The notes under the pieces were generated by a model. That model searched no databases and was not told the origin of the DNA. It worked only from the letters and a program-made list of their open reading frames with translations. The position numbers were made by a program, and so were the translations under genes. Shown here piece by piece: positions 2,953-22,544 of a DNA stretch of 64,000 nt (position 1 is its first letter; each line of letters opens with the position of its first letter). Source of the DNA: Candidatus Komeilibacteria bacterium (lineage in GTDB: Bacteria; Patescibacteriota; Patescibacteriia; UBA1558). The stretch lies in the NCBI GenBank assembly GCA_048538275.1, contig JBLYPW010000001.1, positions 212,919 to 276,918 of the forward strand, read 5' to 3'.

Positions 2953-3198
2953 GTGTTAGAGGTTAAACGTAAGCCGGGTGAGACTTTTGAGAGTTTATTG
3001 CGGCGTTTTACTAAAAAAACCATTCAAAGCGGAAAAATATTGCAAGTTAAGAAAATCAAATATTTTCAGAAACCCAAAACTGAGAGAGCAAAAAAAGAAG
3101 CCGCTCTCAAGCGTCAAGAATCACGTAAGCAAAGAGATTATTTACGACGCGTCGGTAAACTGGATGAGTGGTTGGATAAACGACGTAAGCGCAGATAA
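2953..3198 (+). CDS. rpsU: 30S ribosomal protein S21 (GTG start)
   Basis: MLEVKRKPGETFESLLRRFTKK... is a typical S21 sequence; rpsU-yqeY adjacency is conserved. Confidence 0.85.
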   Translation: MLEVKRKPGETFESLLRRFTKKTIQSGKILQVKKIKYFQKPKTERAKKEAALKRQESRKQRDYLRRVGKLDEWLDKRRKRR

Positions 3199-3216
3199 AC
3201 ATTAGCTTTTTTTACG

Positions 3217-3660
3217 ATGTCATTAGTAGAACAAATATTGGCCGATCAAAAAGAGGCCATGAAAAACAGAGAACAGATTCGCTTATCTGTATTACGTATG
3301 TTATCAACTAGCGTAAAGAATAAAGCGATAGCAAAGCGTGATGATTTAACAGATGAAGAAGTTCAGGCAGTTATTCGCACTGAAGTGAAAAGAAGGCAAG
3401 AGGCTGCCACTGCTTGGCGGCAAGCCAAGCAGGAGGATAAGGCCGTTGCGGAAGAAAAAGAGGCGGAAATTTTGCAAGCTTATTTACCCGCTCAGTTAAG
3501 CGACGATGAATTGAAGTCATTAATTGAGCAAATAATTCAAGAAAATAACCTTAAAGGCGCTGCTCAGTTTGGTCAGGCAATGGGCAAGGTAATGTCAGTA
3601 GTTGCTGGCCGAGCCGATGGTAAGCGGGTGCAAACTTTTCTACGCGCAGCCTTGCAGTAG
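3217..3660 (+). CDS. yqeY: GatB/YqeY domain protein
   Basis: Full-length similarity to the YqeY family (..QFGQAMGKVM..AGRADGKRV..). Confidence 0.8.
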   Translation: MSLVEQILADQKEAMKNREQIRLSVLRMLSTSVKNKAIAKRDDLTDEEVQAVIRTEVKRRQEAATAWRQAKQEDKAVAEEKEAEILQAYLPAQLSDDELKSLIEQIIQENNLKGAAQFGQAMGKVMSVVAGRADGKRVQTFLRAALQ

Positions 3661-3687
3661 ATTTACCATAAATTTCATCACTCTCCC

Positions 3688-5634
3688 ATGCTAAAATTTT
3701 TTGACATGATGAAAAAAAAGAGAACCGCTGTTTTGTTATCTTTATTGATTGCAGCGGTTCTTTTTTTGTGGGCAATGGGTGTGCAGGCGGTCAATGATTT
3801 GGGCTTGAGTACGGCTCAGCAAATTGGTTTGGGCACGACTCCTTTGCCGGATATTGTAGTCAATGTCGTGCATGTGTTTTTGGGATTGCTGGGCTTGTTA
3901 GCGGTCATTTTTGTATTATATGGCGGCTTTGTTTGGATGACGGCCGGTGGCAACCCTGATAAAATAAGTCAAGCAAAAAAGATATTGATTAATACGGTCA
4001 TCGGCATAGTGATTATATTGTCTTCGTATGCTTTGACAGAATTTTTATTTAGACAATTTGGCTGGGTTACTGGATTACAAAATAATGTGGTGAATCAGTC
4101 ACGCGATAACTCTTATTATTATAGTGGTGGCTTGGCCGGCGGTATTATTCGGGCACATTATCCTCAACGTGGCGATGTTGATGTACCGCGCAATGTTGCT
4201 ATTGCCATTACTTTTAAAGAAGCTATTGATCCGACCACCATTATTGGCGACGACGGTAAGATAATTGTTGACAATGTCAGTATTAGCACCTTAGACGGCG
4301 CGGCTCTAACTGATATTAGCGTTAGCACGGTGGATAATTTAACTTTTATATTGCGACCGGATCAGTGGCTGGGCAATGATCAGGCGGCGGTTTGGTATCA
4401 AGTAGGTTTGCTTTCCGGCATTCAAAAAAGCAATGGCGACCCGGCTTTTGGTCCTTTAGGAAATTATAGTTGGCAATTTGCCACTAGCACTGAAGCAGAT
4501 ACGACACCTCCTCAAGTAACGAGTATTACGCCCAGCGCCGATAGTACTGAGCCGCGTAATGTAGCCGTGCAGATTAACTTTAATGAGCCGGTTGATCCTA
4601 CTAGTGCCAGCGGTGATAGTAATAATTTTTCTAATATTATACTTAGTGATATGTCTGATCAAATAGTATCAGGCACTTATACTATAACCAATCAGTACCG
4701 TACCGTAGAATTTTTAACTAATGATTTGTGTGGTCAAAATTCTTGTGGTGATGATGTCTATTGTTTGCCGGCAGACGAATTATTAAACGCTTTGATCAAA
4801 GCCGCCAGCGTGGGTGTCTTACCTTATGACGGCGTGGTGGACATGGCGGGTAATAGTTTAGATGGCAATGCTAATGGTCAAGCGGAAGGATCTTCTACTG
4901 ATGATTATGGCTGGAATTTTAATACCACCAATGACATTGATATTACGGCACCACAAGTTAAAGAAGTTACTCCAGATACTTCAGCCAATGGTATTAGTAC
5001 TCGTGCTAGAGTACGGGCTGATTTTAATAAGCCTATGCTGTTGAGCTCTATTAATGGTGACTCTATGCAAATAGATCAAGGAGTGAATTATTGGATCAAT
5101 AGTACGATTCAGGATAATACTACCATGAGTTATATTAATCACGATGAATTTATTACGCAGACTACTTATCATCCTCGTATTACCAATGCCTGTCGCGATA
5201 TTTACCAAAATTGTTTTAATCCGCCGCAGGGTCCCAATGAATGGCTGATTTCTCCGACGGGCGATTGGGCCTGGATAGATGGTACTACTAGTGGTGATAT
5301 TGCTAGCGATTCATTGGGTACTAGCTTGACCCTAAGCGCTGGTAATAGTAGTGGCGCTTGGGTATCAGCCGCTATGAGTGCTGATGCGCCAGTAGCTGTG
5401 ATGGCTGTTTTTGCTCAGGATTTGTTGGATAATGGTAGTCAGACGCAGATTTTTGTGCGTAGCGCCAATACCATTGCCAATCTAAATAATGCAACCTGGA
5501 TGGCAGTAGGTTATGACGGACAGCTCAATTTGCCTGCGGCGAATTATTGGCAACTCAAAGCAGAATTAAGTAGCGTGGCAGATGATAGCGTGCCTACAAT
5601 TTTTCAAATTAGCCTTAATATTGATAAATCTTAA
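3688..5634 (+). CDS. surface protein: signal peptide, then a T4SS-pilin-like (VirB2/TrbC-type) two-helix module, then three SbsA-type Ig-like (Big_5-like) domains
   Basis: Signal peptide. Hydrophobic hairpin ..HVFLGLLGLLAVIFVLYGGFVWMTAGGNPDKISQAKKILINTVIGIVIILSSYALTEF. Repeated PRNVA(I/V)xIxFxExIDP Ig-like units. Stop/start overlap (TAATG) with the next gene. Confidence 0.8.
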   Translation: MLKFFDMMKKKRTAVLLSLLIAAVLFLWAMGVQAVNDLGLSTAQQIGLGTTPLPDIVVNVVHVFLGLLGLLAVIFVLYGGFVWMTAGGNPDKISQAKKILINTVIGIVIILSSYALTEFLFRQFGWVTGLQNNVVNQSRDNSYYYSGGLAGGIIRAHYPQRGDVDVPRNVAIAITFKEAIDPTTIIGDDGKIIVDNVSISTLDGAALTDISVSTVDNLTFILRPDQWLGNDQAAVWYQVGLLSGIQKSNGDPAFGPLGNYSWQFATSTEADTTPPQVTSITPSADSTEPRNVAVQINFNEPVDPTSASGDSNNFSNIILSDMSDQIVSGTYTITNQYRTVEFLTNDLCGQNSCGDDVYCLPADELLNALIKAASVGVLPYDGVVDMAGNSLDGNANGQAEGSSTDDYGWNFNTTNDIDITAPQVKEVTPDTSANGISTRARVRADFNKPMLLSSINGDSMQIDQGVNYWINSTIQDNTTMSYINHDEFITQTTYHPRITNACRDIYQNCFNPPQGPNEWLISPTGDWAWIDGTTSGDIASDSLGTSLTLSAGNSSGAWVSAAMSADAPVAVMAVFAQDLLDNGSQTQIFVRSANTIANLNNATWMAVGYDGQLNLPAANYWQLKAELSSVADDSVPTIFQISLNIDKS

Positions 5635-8600
5635 TGCGCAAAGCATCGCATAAAAAAATATTTTTTGTTTTCTTGGCTTTGTTATTAATACCAATTATTA
5701 GTTTTGCGCAAGCTAATTTAGGTTTAGATACGGCTGGCAGCATTGGTTTGGGTACAACTGATTTACCGGTAATTATCGTTAATATTATAAGAATATTTTT
5801 GAGTTTATTGGGCTTGATTGCTGTTGGTGTTATTATTTGGGCTGGTTTGCAGTGGATGACAGCCGGTGGCAACCCAGAGCAGGTCGGACGGGCAAAAAAG
5901 TGGATGATTAATGGTTTGATCGGTCTGGTCATAATCATGGCCTCTTTTGGGATTGCTAGTTTTGTTATTAATAATTTAAAACAAGCTACTGGCTTGAGCG
6001 AAGCTACAGGTGATAATAATAGTTCGGGTGGTGGCGGTTTGCCTGGTGGTGGTTTTGTTTTGAGTAGTTGGCAACCAAGTAACAATAGTAGTGATTGGCC
6101 ACGTAATATTATAGTACGAGCTTATTTTAGCGGTGTCATTGATGCCACCACGCTTGATGAGAATGATATCACTTTTATTGACACCACTAGTAATAATAAT
6201 ATTCCTTTTGTTTTAGAGGCCAATGGTAGTCGTTTAGATATAGCGCCACAAAATAGTTGTGCTGTTGATGGCGTTGATTATTGTTTGCCAGCAGATCATG
6301 CTTATCAGGTAAGTATTGTAAATGGATCAATACGTTCTTTAGCTAACCATACTTTACAATGCGGACAAAATTGTCAGACGGTTTTTTCCGTTGGCAATAG
6401 TATTGATAATACTGCTCCCAATTTTGCGCTAGTGCAACCGGTGGCTGATAGTTTAGTAGCGCTTGATTCATTGGTACCGATTTTAGGTCAGCCAAATGAT
6501 AATAGTAGTGTTATTGCAGCGGTGACTTTTTTGGCTAATGATGATGTTGTTCAACCAGTTGGTAGCGATACGGATGGTGAGCCGTGGACAGTTGACTGGG
6601 TAGTGTCTGGCTATAATGCTGGTGAGATATTAAGTTTAAGTGCTACAGCGGAAGATTTGAGTGGCAATGTGGGTTATGCCCCTGATGTGCGGGTTATTGT
6701 GAGGCCGGAGCATTGTTTCAACGGCTATCAAGACGCTGATGAAACCGGTATTGATGTGGGAGGTAGTTGTGGCGCTGCTTTGGGAGAGTCATGCAATGTT
6801 AATAATAGTTGTGGCAATGGTGATCAATTTTGCGCGGAAGGGAGTTGTAGTGAAGTAACCTGTACTTGTGAAGCCAAGCCCATTGTCATGAGCATTACAC
6901 CCGCTGATGGTGCGGTAGGAAATTTAATTACTATTTATGGTAGTGGTTTTGGTCAAGATTTGGGTGTAGTGACTTTTTTGGGTAGTGCAGCTAGTGGCGA
7001 TGAACAGCTTGGTGATTTAAATGTTTGTTTACAAAGCTGGACCAATAATCAGGTTATAGTAGCAGTGCCAAATAATGCGGTTAGTGGGGGGATTAAATTA
7101 ACTACGGCCAGCGGACGTTTTGATACCACTTTGGATGAATTAGGATGGCAAGGAGAATTTGATGTAAATACCGTGGTGCGACCGGGTTTGTGTTCAGTTG
7201 ATCCAACGATTGGACCGGCCTTGTCACTGGCTAGTGTACAAGGTATTAATTTAGGTTCAAGTGCTGACAATCAAAACTTATTTGTAGGTGGTCAGTCGGC
7301 CAATATTGGTACTTGGCAAAATTCAGCAATTGATTTTATAGTTCCAAATCTACTGCCCAGTAGTCAGCCAGTGAGTATTTCTATACAAAATGACCAGCAA
7401 GAAAATAGTAATCCGGTGTATTTTGTGGTGCAGCCAGACATAGTGACACCACATTTATATAGTATTAATCCGGCTGGAGGGCCAGCGGGTCAGTATATTA
7501 CCTTGACGGGTACAAATTTTGGTACAAATCCGAGCGAAGTAAATGTCAAATTTGTGGCCGCTGATAATACTGCCACGGAAGCAGATATAGATTTTCCGGC
7601 AATGTGTGGAGAGCGACAAATTAGTAATACGGAAATGGTGGTAAAGGTGCCAGCGATCGCAGTGGGCGACTATGCCGTGGACGTTCGCCGTTTGGGTAAG
7701 GTGAGTGAGTCCATTGATTTTTCAGTTGTCAGTGGTCAGCCAGGGGCAGGATTGTGTGCTTTATTGCCAGATAATGGACCCAATGGCATTAGCGTGCAGG
7801 TAGTAGGTGATAATTTTTCTAATGATGGAAGTGTCAATTTTTATAATAATCAAACAGCCCAGACTAGCAATTGGCAAGCTAATAGCGTTGACACCGTTGT
7901 ACCGGCTGATGCAGTGAGTGGGCCGGTGAGCATGATGCTGGCAGGACAGGTTAGTAATAGCATAAATTTCTCGGTGGGCACTTGTAGTCCCGGACCGGGC
8001 GAGGAATTGTGTGCTGATGGCAGCTGTCGTCCGGTAGGAGAATGTTTAAATATACCGGCAGATGATGACTATACTTGGTCTTTTACCACGGGCGAGGCGT
8101 GGCCACCCTTCGTTGTTAGTGATTATTGGCCGGCTTGTAATAGTGCTTGTACAAATGCTGATGTAGCAGCGGTTTTTTCCAATCCATTGGATACAAATAC
8201 AATTATGAACAATGTTGAGATTTGGGATTGTGGTGAGGATGACATGTGTCTATCATCTGAGCAAATTGATTTGACCAATGGCAATGTTTGGGGCGGTAAT
8301 TATGATGCGAGTAACAATGTATTGCATTTTTTACCTTTGGGCATTAGCGCTAATCACAATTATCGCGTAGTTATGACCATGGGTAATGATGGTATAAAAA
8401 ATGCCGTAGGTGAAAATTTAACTAATCCTAATTTTGATAAAAATGGTGACGGAATAGATGATAGCTTTGCTTGGATTTTTAGTACTGGCGAGCAAGCATG
8501 TGTTCCAGCGCGCGCTGAGGTTTTGCCATCTCCTATTAAGTTTACTCGTTTAGAACAAAGTGAAACTGTCTACCCTTATCCTTATTCGGCGGCTGACAGT

Positions 8601-11600
8601 TGTAGCGCAACAGGACAACCTTTGTTGGCCAGTGATTATAGTTGGGCATGGAGTCTAAGCTCAGCGCTGCCAATAACTTTAGCAGTGGGAAGTAATTATG
8701 CCATTGTTCGCCCTCGGGCTGATGGCCAATCAAGGGTATTGGCAAGGATAAATGATTATGGTGTTATTGGTAGAAGCTTTGTTACCGTGGATATGGACAT
8801 TCCTGTTATTACCGCTATTAGTCCGGATAATGGTACGACAAATACTAATGTAAAAACTTTGGTTACCATTAGCGGTTATAATTTTGGCGAACATCAGGGT
8901 AGTAGTTATGTGGAAGTGGGCGGTACACGGGCGCAGTTGGCTGATTGTGGTATACCTTGGAGTGATACGCAAATTATTATAGAATTACCAGCCACTACGC
9001 AGAGTGGTGATCATATTAAAGTCATAAAAACTACTGGTGAGGATATTTCAGACCAGGCCTTTACGGTGAATAATATTATTAGACCGGCATTGTGTGGTAT
9101 TTCTCCCAATTATGGCACGGACGGTGATAGCGTGACTTTATCAGGCTATAATTTTGGCGATACCCAAGTTGATAGTATGGTAATGTTTGATCAGCTGGGA
9201 GTGGATACAATCAATAGTTGGTCTAATCAGTCCATTCGTACTATCGTACCGCCAGGTGCTAGTACGGGTCCGGTTTATGTTAATGTTCTTGGTAATAATT
9301 CTAATGCCATTAATTTTTCTTTGGAGCCATTTATAACCAAGCTTGATCCGAACAATGGCCCGGTCAATAGTTATGTTACTATTTATGGTGGAAATTTTGG
9401 TGATACTAGAGGTAATGGTCGGGTGATGATTGGTGGTCAATTAGCGAACTTAGCCCCTTGTGTTGATAATTGGAACAATACCACTATTATCGTTCAGGTA
9501 CCGGAAGGTCTTGATCTGGGCAAGTGGCCGGTACAAATATTTACAGCTAATAATATTCCCACCAATACGGTAGATTTTACAGTCAATGAAAATCCTTTGA
9601 ATCCACTATTGTGCCAGCTGGATCCAAATTGGGCGAGTAATAATGAAAGTATAAAATTGAAAGGTGATAATTTTGGTGACGCTCCCTATTTTGCCGGAGC
9701 AGAAAATGTAGACATGGCAGTGGGCGCTGATTATAGTAATATTATGGACCGTTCATGTATTTATAATAATGGTACTTATATTGGTTCTTGCAGTAATCTA
9801 TGGGTGGACTATCAGTTTAATTTTAATGCGGATGGTTATTATAATGCTTGGGCGGAGACCAGTAATAATGGTATAGATCTTACCGATCAAGGAATCTATC
9901 ATAATGTAGTTGTTTATCTTGACGGTCAATATATAGGTCAGTTCAGCAATGTAGCATCAAACCCAGATCACAATTTAGGTAGTGTGGGTTTGGGTTGGGT
10001 GAGCGCCGGTAATCATACGGTGAGATATTATTGGAATAATGATTGGTGTGGTGGTTGTGGTGATGGCATAGGCGATTCTAATATTCTATTTCATAAGGTT
10101 GGTATAGATGAGGGCGCTCCGATGAGCTATGCTTTATTTACTGATAATTATGCTGCTGAGACAAATAGCTGGCAAAACACAGAAATGAGCGCCAATATCA
10201 ATGAGTCGGTATTATCAGGTCCAGTTAGTTTGGTTAAAGAGGTGGTGACTGGTCGACAGTGCGCTGGTTTTCATATTGGCGGTTGGTGTCCGGGTGGAGT
10301 TTATGATGATATTACTACTACGACACAAAGTAATAGCTTGTCCTTTATCAAGGGCTGTGTGATTGGTACTACTTCTTCGCGAGTAGAAGGTTATATTCCC
10401 ACGGTGGCGGAAAATAGTGAGGCGGTGGGAACTTTAGCTACAGATGGTAGATTTTTATATGGTAAGAGTTGGGGTGGCTATGATAGGCACGATCGGTTGA
10501 TAACAAGAATTGGCAGTGGTTATCAGTATACTGTTCTTGGCAAAGTTTATAGTCATTTAGCTTATGTTGCGGACAGCTTAACTATGACTTATTATCCGGA
10601 TGGATATATATATAATGGTTATTCTACCAATGGGCATAATTTGCAACGGATCAATGCGGGAACTGGTTCCACTGATATGAGTTTAAATATTCCTGATGGT
10701 TTGCTGAATCGTAATACGGGGGAGGTTTATTCAGGAGTAAGAAGTGATTATTTAATTACTTCTGATGGTACATATATTTATAATTTAGCTTTTAGTACTC
10801 ATGCCTGCCCCCAAAATTATGGCAACCGTTGTTATGATGGATTCAAAGTTAGGGTTTTTGATCCAATGGATGATATGAGCTTGGTAAGAGAATGGACATC
10901 TGGTACAGATTCATTTTATACCGACGGTATTATCGCGGATGGTAAATATGTTTATGCCTTTGAATGGAGTGGCCAGCACAGAGTACGAAAAATGGATGCC
11001 ATCACCGGAGAGTTTGTGGCAGAATGGATATCCGAACAAGGCGGTCCAACTGGTGAGGGTAATGATATTATTTCCGGTCAATATGATTGGGTCAATGATA
11101 CAGTATGGATGGGTGATTTAGTTGATCATAGTCGCAATCCTGGCCCGGCTTATATTTATCAATATAATAGTTGTCATTTTGAAGACGGTGTGCTATTTCC
11201 AAGGTGCGGTGATGGTATATTGCAACAGAATGGCGAACCGGGTGATAGTTATGATTATACTTCTGCTCACAGTGGCAATATCAATTCTTATTATGAGCAA
11301 TGTGACGATGGTAATCTTATTAACGGGGATGGTTGTAGCTCGTGGTGTGCTCTTGAATCAGTGCCAGTCAGTAGTAATTTTATTATTACTGATCATGAGC
11401 CTGCAGTGGACGCTCCTGCCAATACCACCATCCGTTTGTTTTTCAGTGATAATGTTGCGACCGGTTCATTGGCCGATCGTGATATTACGATTACAGCCGG
11501 CGAAAATAATTTAAGTTGGAATGCATCAGTGAATAATAATGTCATTACTCTATTACCAACCCAAGTTTGTGGCGCCCCACATACAGACTTACGATGCTGG

Positions 11601-14600: not shown

Positions 14601-17096
14601 GTAAATGTTGGTGAACAGATATTATTTAATGCCCAAGTCATAGATAATGATGGCAATCTTTTGTCAGATGCGATGGTTGATTGGACCAGCAATAGTTCTG
14701 ACAGTATTGGTATTAGTAGCGCGCTAGATGGTGGAATTTTAGTTAGTGGACAAATAGAAGGAGAGGCTATTATTACGGCCAGTTTAGGTGATATTAGCGA
14801 CGATGCCTTGGTTCACGTTGTTGTCCCTGTTAGTCCATGTGGTGATGGCATTGTTGATAGTAATATTGGTGAGCAATGCGATTTTGCGGCTGATGGTACG
14901 GTAATTATACCGGATAATTTAGCTTGTACCAGTTTTCCTGATTATGCTGCCGGTAGTTTGGGTTGTACGAGTCAATGCGAGTTGGACTTCAATCAGTGCG
15001 TGCCTGGCATACCCACATCAGGAGCTTGTGTAAATACAGAAATATCCGCTACGTTTGACAGTCCTATGCTTGCCTCTTCATTTACGCTTGATAAAGTACA
15101 TCTTTATAAACTATTAAGTAATGATGATTGGCAAGAAATACCTATCACTTTTAGTTTGGAAGACCGGCCAATTAGTGGCGAGCCAGAACAAACAATATTA
15201 TATATTCATCCCCTTGATGATCTAGATCCTTTTACCGTTTATAGAGCGGTAGTGTCTGGGGGTAGCGGTGGAGTTATGGATATGGGAGGAAGTATTTTAC
15301 CAAATGATTATGCGTGGCAATTTGATACTGGTGAAACTTTTTGCTTTATTGATCGCGTTGCTATTGAGCCAGATAGTTATGAATTTAATTCAGTGGATGA
15401 ACAAATTAACTTTATAGTGCATGCTTATGACAACGAAAATAATGTCATCAACGGTAATTATAATTGGCAGCTAGAAGGCAATAGCGAGTTAGTGAATATT
15501 GGCAATAATAATGGGCAAATTATTACTGTACAGCCAACTGGTATCGGCAATGGCGCTTTGAGTTTACGTGCCTTGGTTGATAGTGGAGCTCAGGGAAATG
15601 GTGAGGCAGTGGCGCCAATTGATATTTTTATGTGCGGTGCTCCTTGGCAATATAGTAATGACAGCTATAATTTTGCTGTTAAATATTGTCGTGGTGATGG
15701 GCCTAATATGATCTATAATAGTGGTTTTGAGCAAGATAATAACAATGATATTTATCCGGATGGTTGGGAAATGCCTATTGGCAATGCCCTGGTTAGTGAT
15801 TATACTGCTAGATTGGATGAGGACGGTAGCGGCAAGGTCTTTACTATCATTCAAAACAATACTGCTACGATTAGTCATGATCGCGTTTTGGTGCGTCAGT
15901 ATGTGCCGGTCAAGCCACAAACTACTTATAGCATCAATTTTAAAATTAAAGCCGAAAATATAAATAATAGACCGGTGGAAATATATGAGCTGGCGGATAG
16001 AAACGGTGCCAGGCTGGGTGATCAGCCACTTTCTTCTGGTAGCATTGGTAGCTATGATTGGGAGACTAATAGCTTAATAATTCTTACTAATGCCGATACC
16101 AATTATTTGGAAGTGGGCTTGGTATTGTATATGAGTCGTGATAATAATTTATCACAGATTTGGTTTGATGATATGCAATTGGAGCTTGGTAATCAAGCCA
16201 GTAGCTATCAGGCTAGTAATTTATTGCCGGATTTGGTAGTCAGTGAAGTAGGAAGTGGTTTTGATGATCCAAATTTACTAACGACTATATTATTGAGTCA
16301 ACAAGTTTATGGCAGTGATGACGCTATTGGCATGCGGGTCTATAGTAATTTTGATCATCTTGACCCTCTGAGCTGGTATCAAAACAATATAGTGACCCAA
16401 GGACAGCCCCAGTCCATTATAGTCGGAGGTTATAGCGCTTTGCAGGAAGGGCGCAGCACTTATGTTAATGCCGCAAATATAGCTGGCGCTGATGTATATA
16501 CCAATATTTATCTTTTATCTTATACTCAGGGAGCTGGTAATGATACGCAAAATATGTTCACGCAAATTTATAATAATTGGTCTTTTAATACTAATTTAAG
16601 TTCCGTGGCTTTGCGGCAAAGATTAGTGAACGATACTTTACGCTGGGAAGGTTTAAATATATTGGATAACTCACTGCGGGAGTATTATGATAAATATGGC
16701 TTTTATCCTAAATTATTGTCTGGCACTTATCAAGTAGGTAATAGTGTATCGGTTTGGGATTCTTGGCAATCAACATTAGCCACTGCTTTGGGTATAGTCG
16801 CACCGATTGACCCCATCAATAGTCATAGTATTTGTCCTGCCGGGTACGACTCTGTGACTTGTTGGAATCCTGAGCAGCAAGATTATGTTTGCCCGTTAGG
16901 TTCTCATATTTATCAGTATCATGCTTTATCTTCTGGACAACATTTTGAATTGAATAGCAATTTTGAGTATGGCGGGGTTATCTGGCGGGGGAGTTTTCAG
17001 TTGCCAGTTGACATGAGCGAGGAGTGCGACAATATCATTTGGAGTGATCAGGATATTGACAGTAATGAGGCACAAGATGGCATACGAGGCATATAA
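5634..17096 (+). CDS. giant (3820 aa) surface adhesin-like protein whose N-terminal module is a paralog of the 3688-5634 product
   Basis: The architecture, in order: signal peptide; pilin-like module (..WMTAGGNPEQVGRAKKWMINGLIGLVIIM..); Gly linker; Ig-like domains; EGF-like Cys clusters; about 8 IPT/TIG-like units (P..x.I.P..G..G..(I/V)T(I/L)xGxNFG); a propeller-like region; Cys-rich CGDGI..EQCDDGNLINGDGCSSWC repeats; about 15 FG-GAP/VCBS-like DxNxDGxxD repeats; two Big_2-like domains; a CBM-like C-terminal domain. It is a single uninterrupted ORF. Confidence 0.85.
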   Translation: MRKASHKKIFFVFLALLLIPIISFAQANLGLDTAGSIGLGTTDLPVIIVNIIRIFLSLLGLIAVGVIIWAGLQWMTAGGNPEQVGRAKKWMINGLIGLVIIMASFGIASFVINNLKQATGLSEATGDNNSSGGGGLPGGGFVLSSWQPSNNSSDWPRNIIVRAYFSGVIDATTLDENDITFIDTTSNNNIPFVLEANGSRLDIAPQNSCAVDGVDYCLPADHAYQVSIVNGSIRSLANHTLQCGQNCQTVFSVGNSIDNTAPNFALVQPVADSLVALDSLVPILGQPNDNSSVIAAVTFLANDDVVQPVGSDTDGEPWTVDWVVSGYNAGEILSLSATAEDLSGNVGYAPDVRVIVRPEHCFNGYQDADETGIDVGGSCGAALGESCNVNNSCGNGDQFCAEGSCSEVTCTCEAKPIVMSITPADGAVGNLITIYGSGFGQDLGVVTFLGSAASGDEQLGDLNVCLQSWTNNQVIVAVPNNAVSGGIKLTTASGRFDTTLDELGWQGEFDVNTVVRPGLCSVDPTIGPALSLASVQGINLGSSADNQNLFVGGQSANIGTWQNSAIDFIVPNLLPSSQPVSISIQNDQQENSNPVYFVVQPDIVTPHLYSINPAGGPAGQYITLTGTNFGTNPSEVNVKFVAADNTATEADIDFPAMCGERQISNTEMVVKVPAIAVGDYAVDVRRLGKVSESIDFSVVSGQPGAGLCALLPDNGPNGISVQVVGDNFSNDGSVNFYNNQTAQTSNWQANSVDTVVPADAVSGPVSMMLAGQVSNSINFSVGTCSPGPGEELCADGSCRPVGECLNIPADDDYTWSFTTGEAWPPFVVSDYWPACNSACTNADVAAVFSNPLDTNTIMNNVEIWDCGEDDMCLSSEQIDLTNGNVWGGNYDASNNVLHFLPLGISANHNYRVVMTMGNDGIKNAVGENLTNPNFDKNGDGIDDSFAWIFSTGEQACVPARAEVLPSPIKFTRLEQSETVYPYPYSAADSCSATGQPLLASDYSWAWSLSSALPITLAVGSNYAIVRPRADGQSRVLARINDYGVIGRSFVTVDMDIPVITAISPDNGTTNTNVKTLVTISGYNFGEHQGSSYVEVGGTRAQLADCGIPWSDTQIIIELPATTQSGDHIKVIKTTGEDISDQAFTVNNIIRPALCGISPNYGTDGDSVTLSGYNFGDTQVDSMVMFDQLGVDTINSWSNQSIRTIVPPGASTGPVYVNVLGNNSNAINFSLEPFITKLDPNNGPVNSYVTIYGGNFGDTRGNGRVMIGGQLANLAPCVDNWNNTTIIVQVPEGLDLGKWPVQIFTANNIPTNTVDFTVNENPLNPLLCQLDPNWASNNESIKLKGDNFGDAPYFAGAENVDMAVGADYSNIMDRSCIYNNGTYIGSCSNLWVDYQFNFNADGYYNAWAETSNNGIDLTDQGIYHNVVVYLDGQYIGQFSNVASNPDHNLGSVGLGWVSAGNHTVRYYWNNDWCGGCGDGIGDSNILFHKVGIDEGAPMSYALFTDNYAAETNSWQNTEMSANINESVLSGPVSLVKEVVTGRQCAGFHIGGWCPGGVYDDITTTTQSNSLSFIKGCVIGTTSSRVEGYIPTVAENSEAVGTLATDGRFLYGKSWGGYDRHDRLITRIGSGYQYTVLGKVYSHLAYVADSLTMTYYPDGYIYNGYSTNGHNLQRINAGTGSTDMSLNIPDGLLNRNTGEVYSGVRSDYLITSDGTYIYNLAFSTHACPQNYGNRCYDGFKVRVFDPMDDMSLVREWTSGTDSFYTDGIIADGKYVYAFEWSGQHRVRKMDAITGEFVAEWISEQGGPTGEGNDIISGQYDWVNDTVWMGDLVDHSRNPGPAYIYQYNSCHFEDGVLFPRCGDGILQQNGEPGDSYDYTSAHSGNINSYYEQCDDGNLINGDGCSSWCALESVPVSSNFIITDHEPAVDAPANTTIRLFFSDNVATGSLADRDITITAGENNLSWNASVNNNVITLLPTQVCGAPHTDLRCWPTNQRLQVVVAEGSIKNIHNQGLSCNNGKCEFHIQTTDQVDVIAPQISLLTPTQGQQVPVGSSIAVQAQATDDTDVAYVDFAIDGQSVGIVNQTGIFSGDQSYTVLNYFQTLRSVDINNDGYEDLLAFSNNERGFSVLLNNGWGGYIAKDYNVGAYYYSYDSGFGIWDVNNDGYLDVLLGNNNYAGKFYIFLNNGDGTFASRQTYDSAGHYPRAIATGDLNGDGYNDIAVANDRGDGNNIELVIFAGDAQGHWYLVKQLNIADDYSVTGLAISDYDNDGKDDIAVLQRYHSSNNLHIYWGQENLASDWQKLAMNSGGYSYQLVSSDIDNNGNEDLLILMYHSGDDYSYYIQVLYNQDNRIFSQSSLPQSDGHHYYVTNSLLIKDTDNDDYSEIFAREGNVIVRWDNNGGAISAPAVLSNVPSSIYTLTDTNNDNRFDIISRNSNTDAIVLLNNGDGTYGSNNIVSFPYAMKSVVANDLDGDGLPELIMPYVNSISRGVTIYRTGAAGYQEQSNFDIFYDLTARATGRLYGALPDNSGSYYGWWGGDWHAGTGVGSGPVYAQVSGQSTDSTIVSGNLTPSPYDGVYADFDVDLGGGFSVRSTGWVYGYPSLYPYSAAVGNFNGDAYQDIILRDRSGSGSHYDARVLAGGSNGWQEQANYNNTTGASGYDWRTATRGIYQQTQVVDMNSDNSDDFLLFNATGAFSSFINDGTGKFTAINYEDSDTNDAYRFVMGDLTGDNMPDLAYIQYEWQSNSTNLYIVENKNGNLDFAQRRVLTSPDYINGLSIADFNNDGTNDVMVVSQSAGTLFYDRSSGQWRSYTADINAPKLAKAGLVDNDGLLDIVVVTDGGGVQVYYNQGDFTFTSGESFTLFSYYYGPAINDDALAIDDFNNDGQQDIVLSRSYGSDLAFVYQKANPDLYSYAWDTTGLIVGSQHTVQATAYDLDSHSTSSQLVTVTIGLQGDHCTDGLINFDENGLDCGGADCSACQNNISEIIVSPQEANVNVGEQILFNAQVIDNDGNLLSDAMVDWTSNSSDSIGISSALDGGILVSGQIEGEAIITASLGDISDDALVHVVVPVSPCGDGIVDSNIGEQCDFAADGTVIIPDNLACTSFPDYAAGSLGCTSQCELDFNQCVPGIPTSGACVNTEISATFDSPMLASSFTLDKVHLYKLLSNDDWQEIPITFSLEDRPISGEPEQTILYIHPLDDLDPFTVYRAVVSGGSGGVMDMGGSILPNDYAWQFDTGETFCFIDRVAIEPDSYEFNSVDEQINFIVHAYDNENNVINGNYNWQLEGNSELVNIGNNNGQIITVQPTGIGNGALSLRALVDSGAQGNGEAVAPIDIFMCGAPWQYSNDSYNFAVKYCRGDGPNMIYNSGFEQDNNNDIYPDGWEMPIGNALVSDYTARLDEDGSGKVFTIIQNNTATISHDRVLVRQYVPVKPQTTYSINFKIKAENINNRPVEIYELADRNGARLGDQPLSSGSIGSYDWETNSLIILTNADTNYLEVGLVLYMSRDNNLSQIWFDDMQLELGNQASSYQASNLLPDLVVSEVGSGFDDPNLLTTILLSQQVYGSDDAIGMRVYSNFDHLDPLSWYQNNIVTQGQPQSIIVGGYSALQEGRSTYVNAANIAGADVYTNIYLLSYTQGAGNDTQNMFTQIYNNWSFNTNLSSVALRQRLVNDTLRWEGLNILDNSLREYYDKYGFYPKLLSGTYQVGNSVSVWDSWQSTLATALGIVAPIDPINSHSICPAGYDSVTCWNPEQQDYVCPLGSHIYQYHALSSGQHFELNSNFEYGGVIWRGSFQLPVDMSEECDNIIWSDQDIDSNEAQDGIRGI

Positions 17097-17168
17097 TTTA
17101 TAGGTAATAGTGATTTTATTAATACTCAAATTTAGGTTATAATATAATTATCTTTTTAATAAACCTCT

Positions 17169-19700
17169 ATGAATATTTTTTCTAATAAATTGTTTTTAAC
17201 ATCATTGGGCTTGCTTGTATTTATGCCTTTGATTGCTAATGCCGCTATTAGTAATAGTTGTCAGGAAGAATTATTACTTACCAATAATACTGACATCTCT
17301 TTATCTAATATTGAATATTCCGGGATGACACCGGCAAGTGGTTTTTATTTTTTGGACAAAGTCGGTGATTGGACAAAGCTTCATTTATTTTCTGTGACCA
17401 CCGATGCTAAGTTAAATACATTATTAGATCAGGCGGAGGAGAAAATAGGTGAGCTGGAGTTATTACAAAAGCAAAATAATTTAAAATCTCGCTATTTGGA
17501 TATATTAACCACCGCATATACTGACATCATGAGCCAAGTAGATAGTAAATTGGCAGAATTGCAAAATAAAAATGTTGATATGACGGCGGTGATGACACGC
17601 ATCACCCAGCTAAATATGCGTAATAAGGCAATTTTGAGCCGGGTTTTATCCGCTAGTACCAGTGAACAACAAAGTAAATTAAATTTGGCTTATCAGCAGA
17701 CAGCTGACAGTTTTTGTACATCAATAAATACTTGGCAAGAGAGAACCAGCCAATGCCATGATGACATTGTTGTCCAGCAAACTTTAAATTCTTCTTTTAA
17801 TAATATTTCTAACACTATCAGCCAAGCCGAGCAGGCGGTGAAAAATTTACAACCCACTATTGATATTATAAAAGATAGGACGCAAATATTAGATAAATTT
17901 ATTCAGTCAGTTGACGCCGGTTTTCTTGATTTGCAGCTTTTGTTGCAAGAAAAAAGTGATGATCGGGAGGCGCGCTTGCAAAAATTTATGCAATATGTTT
18001 CTGATTGGCTAAATAGTGAGCAGTATCAGCTATTGCATAAAGACATAGAACGCATGAATAATTTTGCTTTTTTAGTGGGTGGGTCGCAACAACAACAGAC
18101 CTTAATGCAAAATTGGCGAGAGCATGACATTAGTTTAACGAGGTTATTGTCAAGGCTAGATAGTTTGCGCAATATATCTATCAATGATGAGGCGGCTGTT
18201 ATCGGTAATAGCTTGTACGCTTTACAATTAAAAGCTTATGATGACGAATTATTAGCCTTAGCTGCTTATATTGCTGAGGATAAAATAGCAGTAGAAGAGC
18301 TAAATGCGGAGGTGCAATTTTGTGCTAAACAATTTTCTAGCATGAACGACGCTCGGGCGTATTTAGAAAAAGATAATCCCAGCAGAGCTTTATCTATTTT
18401 TGTAGAAATTAATAAATCTTTATTAAATAATAATAATAAAATATTAGTTGGTTGTGGCATGAGTGATATAGTGGGTAATGCGCAAAATATTTTACAAAAT
18501 AGTCAGATCTTAGCTGGCGCTGATAAATGTGGCAAGGATATGTATAATATGTATAAAGATGAATTAATTTCTTTGTTTAAGTATGATTTAGAACAAGCGA
18601 ATTTAGTCAATAGTTATGCCAGTAAGGTACAAATTTTACAGCAGCAATCTTTAGAGCAATTAGTCAAGCAAAAATCTATGATTGAAGAGGCTAAGAAAGC
18701 TTTAGCTCAGCCTAAGTTAGAGAACGACGAGGCTTTGTGGGCTTTTTTGGCAGAGCATCTCAAAGATATTAATAATAATTTATTAGATATCAGTAAGAGG
18801 TATCATAATTTATTTGATCAGTTGACTCAATTGTCAAATGATTGGCAATTGTGGCTGAAAAATTTCTATTCTATCAGAGACGTTTTGCCTGCCTTGCGAG
18901 AACAAATAGATCATAAACAAGTAGCTGTTGTACAACAAACATTGGATTTGAATATTTATCCTATTGTAGAAAAGCAGCTTAGTGGGGCAAGAATAACGCC
19001 TCTTACTGGGCAATTATCCTTGAATACAGCTCATCTGGCTTGGGCCAATAAGCACTGGCAGACAGAAGAAAGCAAGGCTTATGAGGATATTGTTTCAGCG
19101 ATTAAGCAGGCTGCTATAGCAATAGGTAAAAATACTTGCGCGCAAGGCATGGCCATCTACAATAGTTCTGTGCCGGGCATTTGTAGTAGTTTAGCCCAAT
19201 TAGATTGGATTAATAGTTGTCAGGTAATAAATAATATAGAGAAGCAAGTTACTCTGGCTTGTACTCCTGATGCTCAACTTTTATGTGGTAATGGTGTGGT
19301 GGATGATGGTGAGCAGTGTGATGATGGCAATGCTATTTCCGGAGATGGCTGTAATAAAGTATGCCAAAAGGAGCAGATTTTATATTGTGGTGATGGGATA
19401 ATCAGTCACCCCAATAGTTCTGGCATTGATGAACAATGTGAAAATCAGCCGGCTAATAAATTATCCGGAGATGGCTGTAGCACTAATTGTCAGAATGAAG
19501 CAGCACCAGTTTGTGGTGATGGTATTTTACAACGAATGATAGATCAAGCAACGACTAGTACTTTTGCCAGCGCTACCTCTGCATATTATGAGCAGTGTGA
19601 TGATGGTAATTTATTACCCGGTGATGGGTGTAACAATTTGTGCCAAATAGAAGCGGGTAGTGCGCAACGTAGTATTAATATATTACAAACTAAACCATAA
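17169..19700 (+). CDS. secreted coiled-coil protein with three C-terminal Cys-rich 'CGDG...EQCDDGN..GDGC..C' repeats
   Basis: Signal peptide, a long Q/L-rich helical region, and C-terminal repeats paralogous to those in the giant protein. Confidence 0.7.
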   Translation: MNIFSNKLFLTSLGLLVFMPLIANAAISNSCQEELLLTNNTDISLSNIEYSGMTPASGFYFLDKVGDWTKLHLFSVTTDAKLNTLLDQAEEKIGELELLQKQNNLKSRYLDILTTAYTDIMSQVDSKLAELQNKNVDMTAVMTRITQLNMRNKAILSRVLSASTSEQQSKLNLAYQQTADSFCTSINTWQERTSQCHDDIVVQQTLNSSFNNISNTISQAEQAVKNLQPTIDIIKDRTQILDKFIQSVDAGFLDLQLLLQEKSDDREARLQKFMQYVSDWLNSEQYQLLHKDIERMNNFAFLVGGSQQQQTLMQNWREHDISLTRLLSRLDSLRNISINDEAAVIGNSLYALQLKAYDDELLALAAYIAEDKIAVEELNAEVQFCAKQFSSMNDARAYLEKDNPSRALSIFVEINKSLLNNNNKILVGCGMSDIVGNAQNILQNSQILAGADKCGKDMYNMYKDELISLFKYDLEQANLVNSYASKVQILQQQSLEQLVKQKSMIEEAKKALAQPKLENDEALWAFLAEHLKDINNNLLDISKRYHNLFDQLTQLSNDWQLWLKNFYSIRDVLPALREQIDHKQVAVVQQTLDLNIYPIVEKQLSGARITPLTGQLSLNTAHLAWANKHWQTEESKAYEDIVSAIKQAAIAIGKNTCAQGMAIYNSSVPGICSSLAQLDWINSCQVINNIEKQVTLACTPDAQLLCGNGVVDDGEQCDDGNAISGDGCNKVCQKEQILYCGDGIISHPNSSGIDEQCENQPANKLSGDGCSTNCQNEAAPVCGDGILQRMIDQATTSTFASATSAYYEQCDDGNLLPGDGCNNLCQIEAGSAQRSINILQTKP

Positions 19701-19722
19701 TAAATATATAAATCATAAATTT

Positions 19723-20517
19723 ATGTTTGAAGATTTTGATGATAAAATAAAAGATAATAAACCGCCTACTTCACCGGAGATTCCTAGGCAACCAGATAGT
19801 ATCCCCGTGGCAAATAATCAATCAGCGGAAAAAGAGCCGGAAGATATTTTTGCCAATGTTGAAAAGGATCAAATGTCTAAACCAACGCAGCCACCCAGGC
19901 CAGCGCAAGCGCCAGGCCAGCCAAAAGATATTGGGCCAGCTAAGCCTTTACAAGCCATGCCAGCGGCGGATGGCGCCAGCCAGACTGGTCATAAACGTTG
20001 GTTATGGGCAGTCATAGGATTGGTGGTGATTGTGGCGATCGGTATTTGGTGGTGGAGCGCTTATAGCACGCCTGATAATTATAGTGATTTGGTCAATAAC
20101 CCCCTTGATAACCAGATGAATAACCAGATGAATAACCAGATTAATAATGCCCCTACAGATTTGGTGAATAATCAGCCGGTTGATATACCGACTGATAACC
20201 AGTTGGATAATAATTCTGGAGAGATTATAAATCAGCCAATAGATAATGTTGATCAGCCCAGCGCTAATCCAGATATCAATATTGATACAGATGGTGATGG
20301 TTTGACAGATAAGCAAGAGGCCACCATTGGTACCGATCCTAGTCAAGCAGATAGTGATGCGGATGGTTTGTTTGATAAGGAAGAGGTGGTAACTTATAAT
20401 ACCGATCCTTTGAACCCGGATACAGATGGTGATGGTTATGCGGATGGCTTGGAAGTGCAAAGTGGCTATAATCCAGCCGGTGAGGGTAAGTTATTAAATA
20501 TTCCTACCGATCAATAA
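19723..20517 (+). CDS. single-pass membrane protein with a Pro-rich N-terminus, N/Q tandem repeats and thrombospondin-type-3-like Ca-binding repeats
   Basis: TM segment WLWAVIGLVVIVAIGIWWW; NNQMNNQMNNQINN; DTDGDGLTDKQE..TDPSQADSDADGLFDKEE..TDPLNPDTDGDGYADGLE. Start chosen at the internal ATG at 19723; the ORF-track start at 19660 overlaps the previous gene. Confidence 0.65.
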   Translation: MFEDFDDKIKDNKPPTSPEIPRQPDSIPVANNQSAEKEPEDIFANVEKDQMSKPTQPPRPAQAPGQPKDIGPAKPLQAMPAADGASQTGHKRWLWAVIGLVVIVAIGIWWWSAYSTPDNYSDLVNNPLDNQMNNQMNNQINNAPTDLVNNQPVDIPTDNQLDNNSGEIINQPIDNVDQPSANPDINIDTDGDGLTDKQEATIGTDPSQADSDADGLFDKEEVVTYNTDPLNPDTDGDGYADGLEVQSGYNPAGEGKLLNIPTDQ

Positions 20518-20521
20518 TTTT

Positions 20522-22117
20522 ATGGCTCAATTAATAGATAATAAAGCAATTAATCAGGACGATTCTTCAGCCAGCGGCAATATTTATACTATGCCCGCTA
20601 AATTTACTAAGCCGACCAATTCTAAGAGTAGTCGCAAGATTTTTATTATAGCCGCTATTATAGTCGGTTTGGTGGTGATAGCCGGAGGGGCTTATTGGTT
20701 TATCAATGCTATGCAAGTGCCAACTGATAATATAGTAATAAACGATCAAAGGTTAAACAATAACATGCTATTAAATAATAGCGTTGCAGTTGATAATAAT
20801 ATTAATGAACAACAATCCCCGGTCAGTGATGACATTGAACAGGAAAGAGATGAGCAGCGCTTGCAAGATATTTTTTCTTTGCGCTCTGCCTTGGCGATAT
20901 ATTATGTCAGCGAGAAGGTATATCCAGATAAACTAGAAGATTTGATCCCAACTTATTTACAAGAATTACCCCAAGACCCGCTAGCTGATTCACAAAATTA
21001 CGTTTATATCGGTGCTGGGGATCAAACAAGTTATCAAATAAATTTTTCTTTAGAATCTGGTGGAAAGGTTGGTAATTTAAATTTACCTGCCGGTGATTAT
21101 GTCGCTCGAGCGGATATGATAGAGCCGTTGGTACCTGATGTATCAGAGGATGATAATGACAATGCTTCTGTGGATGATATGGAATTATTGGCCGGATTGG
21201 ATAGTGATAGAGATGCTTTGAGTGATATTGAGGAGAATATATATAAAACCGATGCGGCTTTGGTAGATACAGATGGCGATGGTTATTCTGATGCTAATGA
21301 ATTGGTCAAGCTTTTTGATCCTGCTTTGCCGGACGGTGCCTTATTGGTTGATTCTGCTAATGTATCAGAATATTTCAATAGCAATTACAATTATAGTATT
21401 TATTATCCTACCGTTTGGAACGAACGTGAGCTGACAGAGGATAAAGCAGAAGTTTTGTTTAGTTCAGCTACCACGGAAATGATTCAAGTAATAGTGCAGG
21501 ACAATCCCTTGGGTTTGTCGGCTCGTGATTGGTATATAAAGAATAATCCTGAGATTGACCCTAGTGGCTTACAGGATGTCGTTTTTGATAATATGGTTGG
21601 AGTACAAACAGAAGATGGTTTGCACACTTATTTAGCTTTGGGTAGCGATATTTATGTTTTAGTTTATAATTTAGGCACTACCAATCAGCTCAATTATTTA
21701 GCTACTTATCAAATGATGTTGGCCAGCTTCAAATTAGTAGAGCCAGCCTCTAATGATCCAGCGGTATTGCGTGATCAACAACGTCAGCAAGATGTTTCTA
21801 ATTGGCGCTTGGCTTTGCTTAGTTATCAAGTAGATAACTTATCCTTGCCTGATAGTATAGATGCTGATGTTGATACTTTTCAAATATTAGGTAATGGGTC
21901 AGATTGTGCGATGACTTGTTCTGCTGTGACCACTGCTACGGCTTGTGTAGATATGAGTGGTATTTTAGTGCCTAGTTATTTAGAGTCATTGCCTCAGGAC
22001 CCCAGCACCGGATCAATGGCTAATACTGGATATTATGTAAATTTATTGACAGACGGCACGGTGATTGTTGGTGCTTGCCAGCCTGAGACAATGGATATTA
22101 TTGAGGTGAGTAATTAG
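20522..22117 (+). CDS. membrane-anchored secreted protein with two GspG-like (type II secretion pseudopilin-fold) domains and a TSP3-like Ca-binding repeat
   Basis: N-terminal TM segment with no prepilin leader. Domain 1: ERDEQRLQDIFSLRSALAIYY..YPDKLEDLIPTYLQELPQDPLADSQNYVYIG..YQINFSLESG. Domain 2: RDQQRQQDVSNWRLALLSY..LVPSYLESLPQDPSTGSMANTGYYVNLLTDGTVIVGA. Between them: DTDGDGYSDANE. Confidence 0.7.
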   Translation: MAQLIDNKAINQDDSSASGNIYTMPAKFTKPTNSKSSRKIFIIAAIIVGLVVIAGGAYWFINAMQVPTDNIVINDQRLNNNMLLNNSVAVDNNINEQQSPVSDDIEQERDEQRLQDIFSLRSALAIYYVSEKVYPDKLEDLIPTYLQELPQDPLADSQNYVYIGAGDQTSYQINFSLESGGKVGNLNLPAGDYVARADMIEPLVPDVSEDDNDNASVDDMELLAGLDSDRDALSDIEENIYKTDAALVDTDGDGYSDANELVKLFDPALPDGALLVDSANVSEYFNSNYNYSIYYPTVWNERELTEDKAEVLFSSATTEMIQVIVQDNPLGLSARDWYIKNNPEIDPSGLQDVVFDNMVGVQTEDGLHTYLALGSDIYVLVYNLGTTNQLNYLATYQMMLASFKLVEPASNDPAVLRDQQRQQDVSNWRLALLSYQVDNLSLPDSIDADVDTFQILGNGSDCAMTCSAVTTATACVDMSGILVPSYLESLPQDPSTGSMANTGYYVNLLTDGTVIVGACQPETMDIIEVSN

Positions 22118-22118: not shown

Positions 22119-22544
22119 ATGTCGTCACTGACTGTGTCATCTGTCGGTGGAGTTCAACTGTCTAGTAGCTATCGTCAGGTCCTAAGGAAGGCAATACAAG
22201 TTGCTGCTCGCCAATTGAAATTAACTTTTCCCCTAAATGTAGTGGTGGTGGATCCGTCTACTAGCCGTAAATTGAATAGTCGTTATCGGGGAGTAAAGAA
22301 AGCGACCGACGTGTTGTCTTTTTTTTATGAACCAAAGCCTCTGAGCGGTGAAATTATTATTTGTTATGATATAGCCAGGCGTCAGGCTAAAGAATTGGGA
22401 CATAGTATTACTACCGAGTTGGCGCAATTGGCTATTCACGCTTGTGCTCATATTGCCGGCTATGATCATGAACTGGACAAAGACAAAAAAATTATGAGCA
22501 AAATTGAAGATAAAATTTGGCATAAATATGAGCAAACGAATTAA
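22119..22544 (+). CDS. ybeY: rRNA maturation endoribonuclease YbeY
   Basis: HACAHIAGYDHE metal-binding motif. Confidence 0.85.
   Translation: MSSLTVSSVGGVQLSSSYRQVLRKAIQVAARQLKLTFPLNVVVVDPSTSRKLNSRYRGVKKATDVLSFFYEPKPLSGEIIICYDIARRQAKELGHSITTELAQLAIHACAHIAGYDHELDKDKKIMSKIEDKIWHKYEQTN

Follow-up and report, generated by a model that had tools for sequence, protein, structure and literature searches.

A stretch of 64,000 nucleotides (nt) from a Candidatus Komeilibacteria bacterium (contig JBLYPW010000001.1, positions 212,919 to 276,918; the whole stretch is referred to here as the window) carries, within its positions 3688-22117, five consecutive open reading frames (ORFs), all on the + strand, which we call g1 to g5. 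An initial annotation of the window had described them as five co-directional genes of an apparent dedicated adhesion or appendage system and had raised the possibility of a symbiont of the candidate phyla radiation (CPR); strand and coordinates were confirmed, and Candidatus Komeilibacteria are indeed members of the CPR. All five proteins are certainly exported or membrane-anchored by predicted topology and built of extracellular modules, and a four-gene subset of the locus is, as judged from sequence, a strong candidate to encode a core structure of the cell surface or of attachment. We lean, with moderate confidence, towards the reading that the products of the locus assemble into one membrane-anchored surface structure, a conserved envelope module of Patescibacteria. 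The genes, and a conserved portion of g2 that is central to the argument, are the following (aa, amino acids):

3688..5634, + strand: g1, 648 aa
5634..17096, + strand: g2, the giant protein, 3820 aa
16266..17063, + strand: conserved g2 module, g2 aa ~3545-3810, which lies at the C-terminus of g2 in this genome and consists of a PsbP-like and, after it, a GspG-head-like domain
17169..19700, + strand: g3, 843 aa
19723..20517, + strand: g4, 264 aa, start corrected from GTG 19660
20522..22117, + strand: g5, 531 aa

The genes are closely spaced. The stop codon of g1 (TAA, 5632-5634) shares a base with the start codon of g2 (ATG, 5634-5636), which bears out the TAATG overlap (5632-5636) that had been proposed, and the gaps that follow measure 72 nt between g2 and g3, 22 nt between g3 and g4 (with the corrected g4 start), 4 nt between g4 and g5, and 1 nt between g5 and the YbeY gene. 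With regard to start codons, NCBI calls g1 from M7 (nt 3706). The product of g4 was initially given as 285 aa; its true start is almost certainly ATG 19723 (264 aa, MFEDFDD) rather than GTG 19660, because the orthologues begin MFD[DE] and the GTG start would overlap g3.

Relatives of g1 are numerous. A k-mer search returned 297 matches, and among the 120 listed all carried Big_5 and nearly all T4SS_pilin domains; at least 527 species genomes of GTDB encode a relative, and the g1 family comprised 2605 clusters at 50% identity (E≤1e-30). Gene order was analysed by phmmer in 83 distinct related loci, which are cited here by L numbers where needed. A pilin-headed giant ORF lay directly 3' of g1 in 73 of the 76 loci with enough downstream DNA, mostly at a gap of -1 to +12 nt; among loci with a complete g2, the TSP3 protein g4 came next in 14 of 16 and g5 in 11 of 16, and YbeY was then reached in six of the seven loci with enough further DNA. 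The order signal peptidase I (SPaseI)-histidyl-tRNA synthetase (HisRS)-S21-YqeY-g1-g2-g4-g5-YbeY-diacylglycerol kinase (DAGK)(-FtsA-FtsZ) recurs in loci labelled Komeili-, Uhr-, Falkow-, and Magasanikbacteria, Parcubacteria, and Paceibacter. In L087/L088 a histidine kinase after DAGK replaces FtsA-FtsZ and the module is intact, and in some lineages a reversed RelA/SpoT gene is inserted before g1, so that g1 and YqeY cannot share a transcript in those lineages. The conserved unit is the four genes g1, g2, g4, and g5 at a fixed chromosomal position, to the exclusion of g3; the comparison with other named groups of Patescibacteria drew on 79 further distinct loci. One locus, L010, has a 568-aa g5/g4-like TSP3 protein between g1 and g2 and not after g2, so the order inside the module is not absolutely fixed. 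Many of the GTDB records with the locus (L008, L011, L013, L016, and others) are third-party-annotated metagenome-assembled genomes titled 'uncultured Gammaproteobacteria bacterium'; on these Patescibacteria-type loci such titles probably represent mislabelled taxonomy.

The g1 protein has a predicted signal peptide (aa 1-34, …GVQA|V), a VirB2/TrbC-like two-helix hairpin (aa 51-122) that matches the Pfam family T4SS_pilin (PF18895; 44.2 bits over aa 51-119, cut-off 26.6; T4SS, type IV secretion system), three Ig-like Big_5 domains (aa ~150-510; 86.3 bits in three stretches, Pfam), and a clade-specific C-terminal domain (aa ~555-648). An AlphaFold2 (AF2) model with a predicted local distance difference test score (pLDDT) of 74.5 has an N-terminal signal-like helix, hairpin helices at 53-85 and 90-127, and three Ig-like domains at pLDDT >90; when submitted to Foldseek, this model found generic tandem bacterial Ig matches only and gave no lead to function. 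Hydropathy and charge put the loop GGNPDKISQAKK in the cytoplasm and the C-terminal ectodomain outside, and VirB2 has the same loop-in, C-terminus-out arrangement. An alignment of the g1 family contains invariant motifs and four invariant Cys. Over their first ~300 aa, g1 can be aligned with g2 (BLASTP E=8e-33, 31% identity), and by this alignment the two proteins are judged paralogous over the signal peptide, the hairpin, and the first Big_5 domain. The hairpin of g2 (aa 43-111), which follows a signal peptide, scores 42.4 bits against PF18895 at the same cut-off, and weak pilin-like matches to TrbC and Mbov_0395 occur as well; the T4SS-pilin-like module that the initial annotation had seen in the first two genes is thereby upheld.

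These hairpins are the starting point of an alternative that we regard as rather improbable, namely that g1 and g2 belong to a VirB2-type T4SS pilus as minor or tip subunits, with hairpins that co-polymerise with small pilins, a VirB4-type machine encoded elsewhere, and ectodomains that decorate a host-contact filament. Like g1 and g2, VirB2/TrbC pilins have a signal peptide, two hydrophobic helices, and a short basic loop, and both occur in the CPR; the PF18895 scores above cut-off and the weak TrbC and Mbov_0395 matches speak for the same connection. Standalone, complete VirB2-like pilin ORFs of 123-129 aa also lie between g1 and g2 in three loci (L039:11761-12129, L046:11737-12123, and L077:7071-7439), which recalls a major-plus-minor pilin layout. 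According to published work (PMC12102498, PMC12857230, PMC10633639), VirB2-like pilins and arrays of them beside virB4 occur widely among Patescibacteria and are essential to Southlakia, for which reports a T4SS pilus has also been suggested; Wang et al. 2023 and Quinonero-Coronel et al. 2025 described such T4SS pilin arrays of Patescibacteria. By contrast with a VirB2/TrbC pilin, which is small when mature (~70-120 aa), the hairpin here makes up the N-terminal ~120 aa of the 648-aa g1 and the 3820-aa g2, and a C-terminal extension of 3700 aa cannot fit a major subunit. The locus lies in a housekeeping block, away from the T4SS cluster beside whose virB4 the published arrays are housed; no VirB4, VirB3, or VirB6 family appears in Pfam gene tables covering +/-10 kb in nine related loci, the Pfam-scanned window genes (1-42.8 kb and DnaB) include no T4SS machinery, and g1 and g2 are the only ORFs of the window with a pilin module. 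A genomic survey of Patescibacteria pilins, in which adhesins such as PrgB were sought and none detected, does not mention fused pilin forms.

Beyond its hairpin, g2 combines two conserved regions with a variable middle. The conserved N-terminal block (aa 1-~1010) contains Big_5, Big_7, a Cys-rich knot, a TIG array, and Big_5, and the conserved module of ~260 aa (aa ~3545-3810) is kept in 45 orthologues; outside these two regions g2 is not conserved across orthologues. Comparison of orthologues identified the middle (aa ~1010-3540) as lineage-specific, its FG-GAP region included; it holds further TIG, Big_5/Big_7, and FG-GAP repeats as well as a Big_5 domain at aa 3121-3232, and g2 also has a weak match to CBM_4_9, a family of carbohydrate-binding modules. 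FG-GAP propellers and IPT/TIG arrays had been noticed in the locus, and profile searches of g2 agree: TIG scored 147.3 bits in six stretches, above cut-off, as a repeated array, and FG-GAP_3 and FG-GAP scored 136.8 and 79 bits, respectively, the repeats being accompanied by 12 Ca-loop motifs of the D-x-[DN]-x-[DN]-G type in aa 2105-2885. The FG-GAP region may adopt a propeller fold, possibly as two seven-bladed units. It resembles the FG-GAP/VCBS propellers of integrin alpha in these strong matches and in its 12 Ca loops, and differs in that it is lineage-specific and lies outside the conserved core. The middle of g2 also contains one Cys-rich acidic repeat (aa 1881-1909; TIGR02232, 42.6 bits, cut-off 20.8), and g2 holds 66 Cys in total.

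Both g4 and g5 have the predicted architecture of single-pass membrane proteins. The cytoplasmic N-terminus of g4 (MFEDF…) carries the motif EDIFANV (aa 40-46, window 19840-19860). A transmembrane (TM) helix follows at aa ~90-116, and an N/Q-rich linker leads from there to three Ca-binding TSP3 repeats with D-x-D-x-D motifs (aa 188-244; TSP3_bac, PF18884, 70 bits over 3 repeats); within L003-L081, g4 orthologues share the MFD[DE] start and [AP]EDIF[AS]x[VT]D. In g5, the cytoplasmic N-terminus carries the motif IYTMPAKF (aa 21-28, window 20582-20605), which orthologues from the same range of loci share as [IV][YH][TV]MPx[KR]F at 12-25 aa before the TM helix. The TM helix of g5 (aa 38-63) precedes a GspG-head-like domain (~103-196), two TSP3 repeats (227-260), a PsbP/Mog1-like domain (~281-402), and a second GspG-head-like domain (~413-519). 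While TSP3 repeats had been reported in both proteins, those of g5 fall below the cut-off when the protein is searched by itself (TSP3_bac, 16.3 bits, cut-off 25) and gain their support at the level of the family, 21 of whose 23 members match at E≤0.05 (best 1.8e-9) and in whose alignment the D-x-D-x-D residues are invariant.

An AF2 model of g5 (pLDDT 64) contains the TM helix at 38-63, a helix-plus-sheet domain, TSP3 loops, and a confident mid domain. This mid domain (aa 281-402, pLDDT mostly >80) matched BT_1490, CyanoP/PsbP, Mog1, and Tsi3 in Foldseek (3hlz at 2e-6, 2xb3 at 4e-5, and 1eq6 at 2e-3), and weak Pfam PsbP matches occurred in 6 of 23 g5 family members. Likeness to the PsbP/Mog1 fold of CyanoP, BT_1490, and the type VI secretion system immunity protein Tsi3 thus extends over Foldseek E-values of 2e-6 to 2e-3 for g5, and by homology to the corresponding g2 domain; unlike those proteins, to which identity is 10-15%, the domain here is an extracellular part of CPR membrane proteins. 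With regard to the GspG-head-like domains, a family profile of the first domain, searched against PDB sequences, found EpsG/GspG-type proteins as all six of its best matches (best E=8e-5), and the domain has the helix and beta-sheet of GspG/EpsG in the AF2 model. The Pfam family T2SSG scored 17 bits with the whole protein and 21.5 bits with the isolated first domain (cut-off 21), which matched in 6 of 9 family members at E≤1. The two GspG-head-like domains of g5 are homologous to each other (hhalign 97%, E=2e-11), and no pilins were among the Foldseek matches of the g5 model at E≤0.001. A regular-expression search for the prepilin peptidase motif (G|F-T-L-I-E type) found none in any of the five proteins, and the TM helix of g5 is split from the head helix (103-131) by ~40 residues at pLDDT <50. 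Unlike GspG/EpsG, g5 lacks both this motif and a continuous hydrophobic alpha-1 helix, and it cannot therefore be a canonical polymerising pseudopilin; in view of the missing motif, the domains are GspG-type heads on an ordinary single-pass membrane protein. Of the double pseudopilin that the initial annotation had proposed, the GspG-like heads thus survive, the first by its own match and the second by homology, and the pseudopilin proper does not.

The same two domain types recur at the end of g2. The conserved g2 module aligned with the g5 mid domain at an hhalign probability of 97.3% (E=2e-11), and its second half aligned with the first GspG-like domain of g5 at 85-93% (E=6e-6 to 3e-7). Alone, the g2 module had no Pfam match, a PDB sequence search with the C-terminal 382 aa of g2 was empty, and a profile of the second half of the module found only chance-level MotY matches among PDB sequences; because these direct searches gave nothing, the relation of the module to GspG is drawn transitively, by hhalign via g5. 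In three loci the module forms the N-terminus of a separate signal-peptide protein of 869-887 aa (L013:16574-19216, L021:11827-14433, and L068:16742-19402), encoded directly 3' of a shorter, pilin-anchored g2. Such fission or fusion within the locus argues that the parts work together.

The remaining gene, g3, is a clade-specific insertion of the Komeilibacteria-type clade. Its product has a signal peptide and, by hydropathy, no TM helix besides; an N-terminal domain (aa 52-146) whose sub-threshold likeness to DUF5667 (23.9 bits, cut-off 27) is clearer in orthologues; a long central region that has no profile match and varies in length among orthologues; and three Cys-rich acidic repeats (aa ~695-830; TIGR02232, 94.1 bits, cut-off 20.8; DUF4215, 51 bits), with 22 Cys in total. 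The CDDGN..GDGC repeats noticed at the outset in the 3820-aa and 843-aa proteins are accordingly genuine, at 42.6 and 94.1 bits. They correspond to the myxococcal Cys-rich acidic repeat (TIGR02232/DUF4215; C-D-D-G-N-x4-GDGC-x3-C), of which g2 has one copy with a strong match and g3 has three, and differ from it in being joined here to a DUF5667-headed protein and to a giant with a pilin anchor. The idea that the repeats of g2 and g3 had recently exchanged DNA was rejected, as the copies are only 63-78% identical. A k-mer search with g3 found only g3 itself, and orthologues were found by position instead: outside the window, g3 follows a complete g2 only in the Komeilibacteria-type relatives L002/L087 and L088-L091, as proteins of 1138-1230 aa encoded between g2 and g4, and one Uhrbacteria locus (L030) has a g3-like fragment of 146 aa. 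With BLASTP E-values of 6e-64 and 1e-49 against the L087 orthologue, g3 is recognisably orthologous among the closest relatives and fast-diverging.

Shared modules thus join all five proteins (the hairpin and Big_5 in g1 and g2, the Cys repeat in g2 and g3, TSP3 in g4 and g5, and the PsbP/GspG-like domains in g2 and g5), and the ectodomain types of the locus are typical of adhesins and surface layers. This web of modules, the tight gene spacing, the fission and fusion of the g2 module, and the retention of the set across groups and changes of neighbours make a cooperating surface complex the best reading. Under this reading, g1 and g2 would be exported via Sec, lose their signal peptides, and be held in the cytoplasmic membrane by the VirB2/TrbC-like hairpin, with the N-terminus out, the basic loop in, and the C-terminus out, which would place the Ig-like, TIG, and FG-GAP ectodomains outside the cell. 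The hairpins and first Ig-like domains of g1 and g2 would form a conserved membrane-proximal base, to which g1, with its slow divergence, may contribute as a base subunit or short stalk; g2 would continue from the same base into a lineage-variable adhesive middle (TIG, Ca-binding FG-GAP, and possibly a carbohydrate-binding module) and end in the PsbP-like and GspG-head-like module. The proteins g4 and g5 would be N-in single-pass proteins with Ca-binding TSP3 repeats; having the same two domain types, g5 probably either attaches to g2 itself or shares an envelope partner with it, and the cytoplasmic motifs of g4 and g5 could tie the complex to a cytoplasmic factor. The clade-specific g3 would be a secreted accessory protein. 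While genes, domains, paralogy, predicted topology, and synteny are established, assembly, adhesion, and cytoplasmic coupling are what we infer from them, and adhesion may be directed at a host cell, at a substrate, or at the wall of the cell itself.

The initial annotation had staked its account on profile support for the domains and on the genes staying together in related genomes; most of the domain calls are supported by profile searches, and the genes are kept together. Profile-supported domains, synteny in relatives, and a CPR organism make its 'dedicated cell-surface system' well founded, in the form of a four-gene unit without g3, and the host attachment and conjugative-pilus link that it added would go further than these observations. 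An anti-phage defence role was rejected, PADLOC profiles, run on g1, g3, g4, and g5, giving zero matches.

The flanks of the locus consist of same-strand housekeeping genes, with SPaseI, HisRS, S21, and YqeY on the 5' side and YbeY, DAGK, FtsA, FtsZ, NrdR, HtrA, a release factor, VanZ, and ComEC on the 3' side. At window 2953-3660 and 22119-22887 they resemble a block known from Firmicutes, rpsU-yqeY … ybeY-dgkA, so that the surface module looks like an insertion in an old housekeeping block. SPaseI, four genes 5' of g1, is syntenic too. Promoters and terminators were sought by a consensus scan of the window, which found 98 promoter-like sites where 69 were expected and no more terminators than chance predicts, and so was of little informative value. 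No promoter-like site lies near 3660, where the initial annotation had placed one; the sole good sigma-70-like match in the gaps of the locus is at 17119-17148 (TTAATA-18-TATAAT), between g2 and the clade-specific g3, and no intergenic gap of the locus contains a terminator-like site.

Several features of the wider window are recorded here as well. A thioredoxin-like ORF adjoins a DsbB-family ORF at window 35733-36696, a pair that is consistent with disulfide formation in the exported, Cys-rich g2 and g3. Two small ORFs (157 and 109 aa; window 26050-26845) 3' of NrdR have no Pfam match, and their position is kept in L090:15513-16300. Across window 1-64000, each 2-kb bin has a positive GC skew and almost all genes lie on the + strand, apart mainly from DnaB (60273-61658), an ORF at 59.3-59.9 kb, and a handful of ORFs at 31.4-35.6 kb; the window has the appearance of a single leading-strand segment, with a str/S10-type ribosomal gene region from ~39.7 kb.

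The position of the locus bears directly on whether it is a functional unit at all. It could be argued that independent surface genes are adjacent merely through the frozen gene order of small genomes and that their shared repeats are common building blocks: the surrounding housekeeping genes are just as syntenic, the TSP3, Big_5, and DUF4215 repeats are widespread and promiscuous, and g3 comes and goes. We consider this very unlikely, given the start-stop overlap of g1 and g2 and the very short gaps in most lineages, the sharing of specific, non-promiscuous modules (the hairpin with the first Big_5 domain, and the PsbP-like and GspG-like pair), the fission and fusion of the g2 module inside the locus, and the retention of the set when its neighbours change (L087/L088).

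A second view, unlikely in our judgment and yet with a real chance of being correct, takes the module for a core envelope scaffold, surface-layer-like or wall-spanning and possibly division-coordinated, in which the hairpin is merely an anchor and no host adhesin is involved. The pace of g1 evolution favours it: compared with two distant genomes, g1 is 39-41% identical, and YqeY, YbeY, and DAGK are 37-43%, 34-36%, and 43-47% identical, respectively. Its place beside YbeY-DAGK-FtsA-FtsZ is fixed in most lineages, and the Big_5 Ig-like domain type was first described in the S-layer protein SbsA. The cytoplasmic motifs of g4 and g5 may point the same way; in its layout, that of g5 is reminiscent of the INLLP peptide by which PilN binds the actin-like PilM. 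Against a scaffold stand the middle of g2, which varies by lineage and carries adhesin-type modules (FG-GAP, TIG, and a possible CBM), the persistence of the module without FtsA-FtsZ adjacency in L087/L088, and the fact that no peptidoglycan-binding or S-layer-homology domain was detected in the proteins. As a separate observation, FtsA, encoded three genes 3' of g5, gives a weak PilM_2 match.

Several points count against the assembly of the products into one surface structure with a role in attachment. Since g1 diverges no faster than YqeY and YbeY, a core structural component fits better than a host-specific adhesin, for which such housekeeping-like divergence would be unusual. Because the flanking housekeeping genes are equally syntenic, gene order alone is no proof of a functional unit, and its conservation may partly reflect genome inertia; with no terminators and a single promoter-like site in the gaps, the genes of the locus are moreover inseparable from their housekeeping neighbours. 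The link to a conjugative-type pilus is weakened by the lack of any recognisable T4SS machinery gene in the Pfam gene tables of the nine related loci. Finally, the GspG-head identity of g5 is marginal, at the family threshold, and the confidence of the g5 model is moderate.

The locus is best classed as a combination of known kinds, that is, CPR surface or adhesion proteins and VirB2-like pilin modules. Giant membrane proteins of Vampirococcus lugosii have been proposed as host-attachment factors (PMC8080830), and VCBS, FN3, and dockerin envelope proteins of the cultivated Saccharibacterium Southlakia are essential for epibiotic growth (PMC10633639), which sets a precedent for the reading preferred here. 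By domain types these proteins are like those described here, being multi-kilodalton and membrane-associated, with integrin/VCBS-like and Ig/fibronectin-like repeats and Ca motifs, in a host-dependent group; by contrast, they are listed singly, and no multi-gene module, pilin-hairpin anchor, or shared PsbP/GspG-like module has been described for them. Likewise, a search of a non-exhaustive literature library found neither the conserved module nor giants anchored by a pilin hairpin nor the PsbP/GspG-like module shared by g2 and g5 described.

Apart from a few cultivated Saccharibacteria, little is known of how CPR bacteria construct their surface and attach to hosts, and the locus offers a concrete set of targets in this regard: a base protein that diverges slowly, a giant that varies by lineage, and two membrane partners that carry cytoplasmic motifs, all at a fixed chromosomal address. 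The VirB2-like hairpin, which in the CPR has so far been discussed only as a T4SS pilin, here heads very large ectodomain proteins. A bolder possibility, which we hold to be quite improbable, is that g1, g2, g4, and g5 are an envelope-spanning apparatus of much of Patescibacteria, not described before, in which the hairpins would assemble or anchor giant adhesive fibrils independently of a conjugation-type T4SS and g4 and g5 would, by way of their conserved N-terminal peptides, provide coupling to a cytoplasmic factor such as the actin-like FtsA/PilM; if true, this would mean integrin-like, regulated, transmembrane-coupled attachment in ultra-small bacteria.

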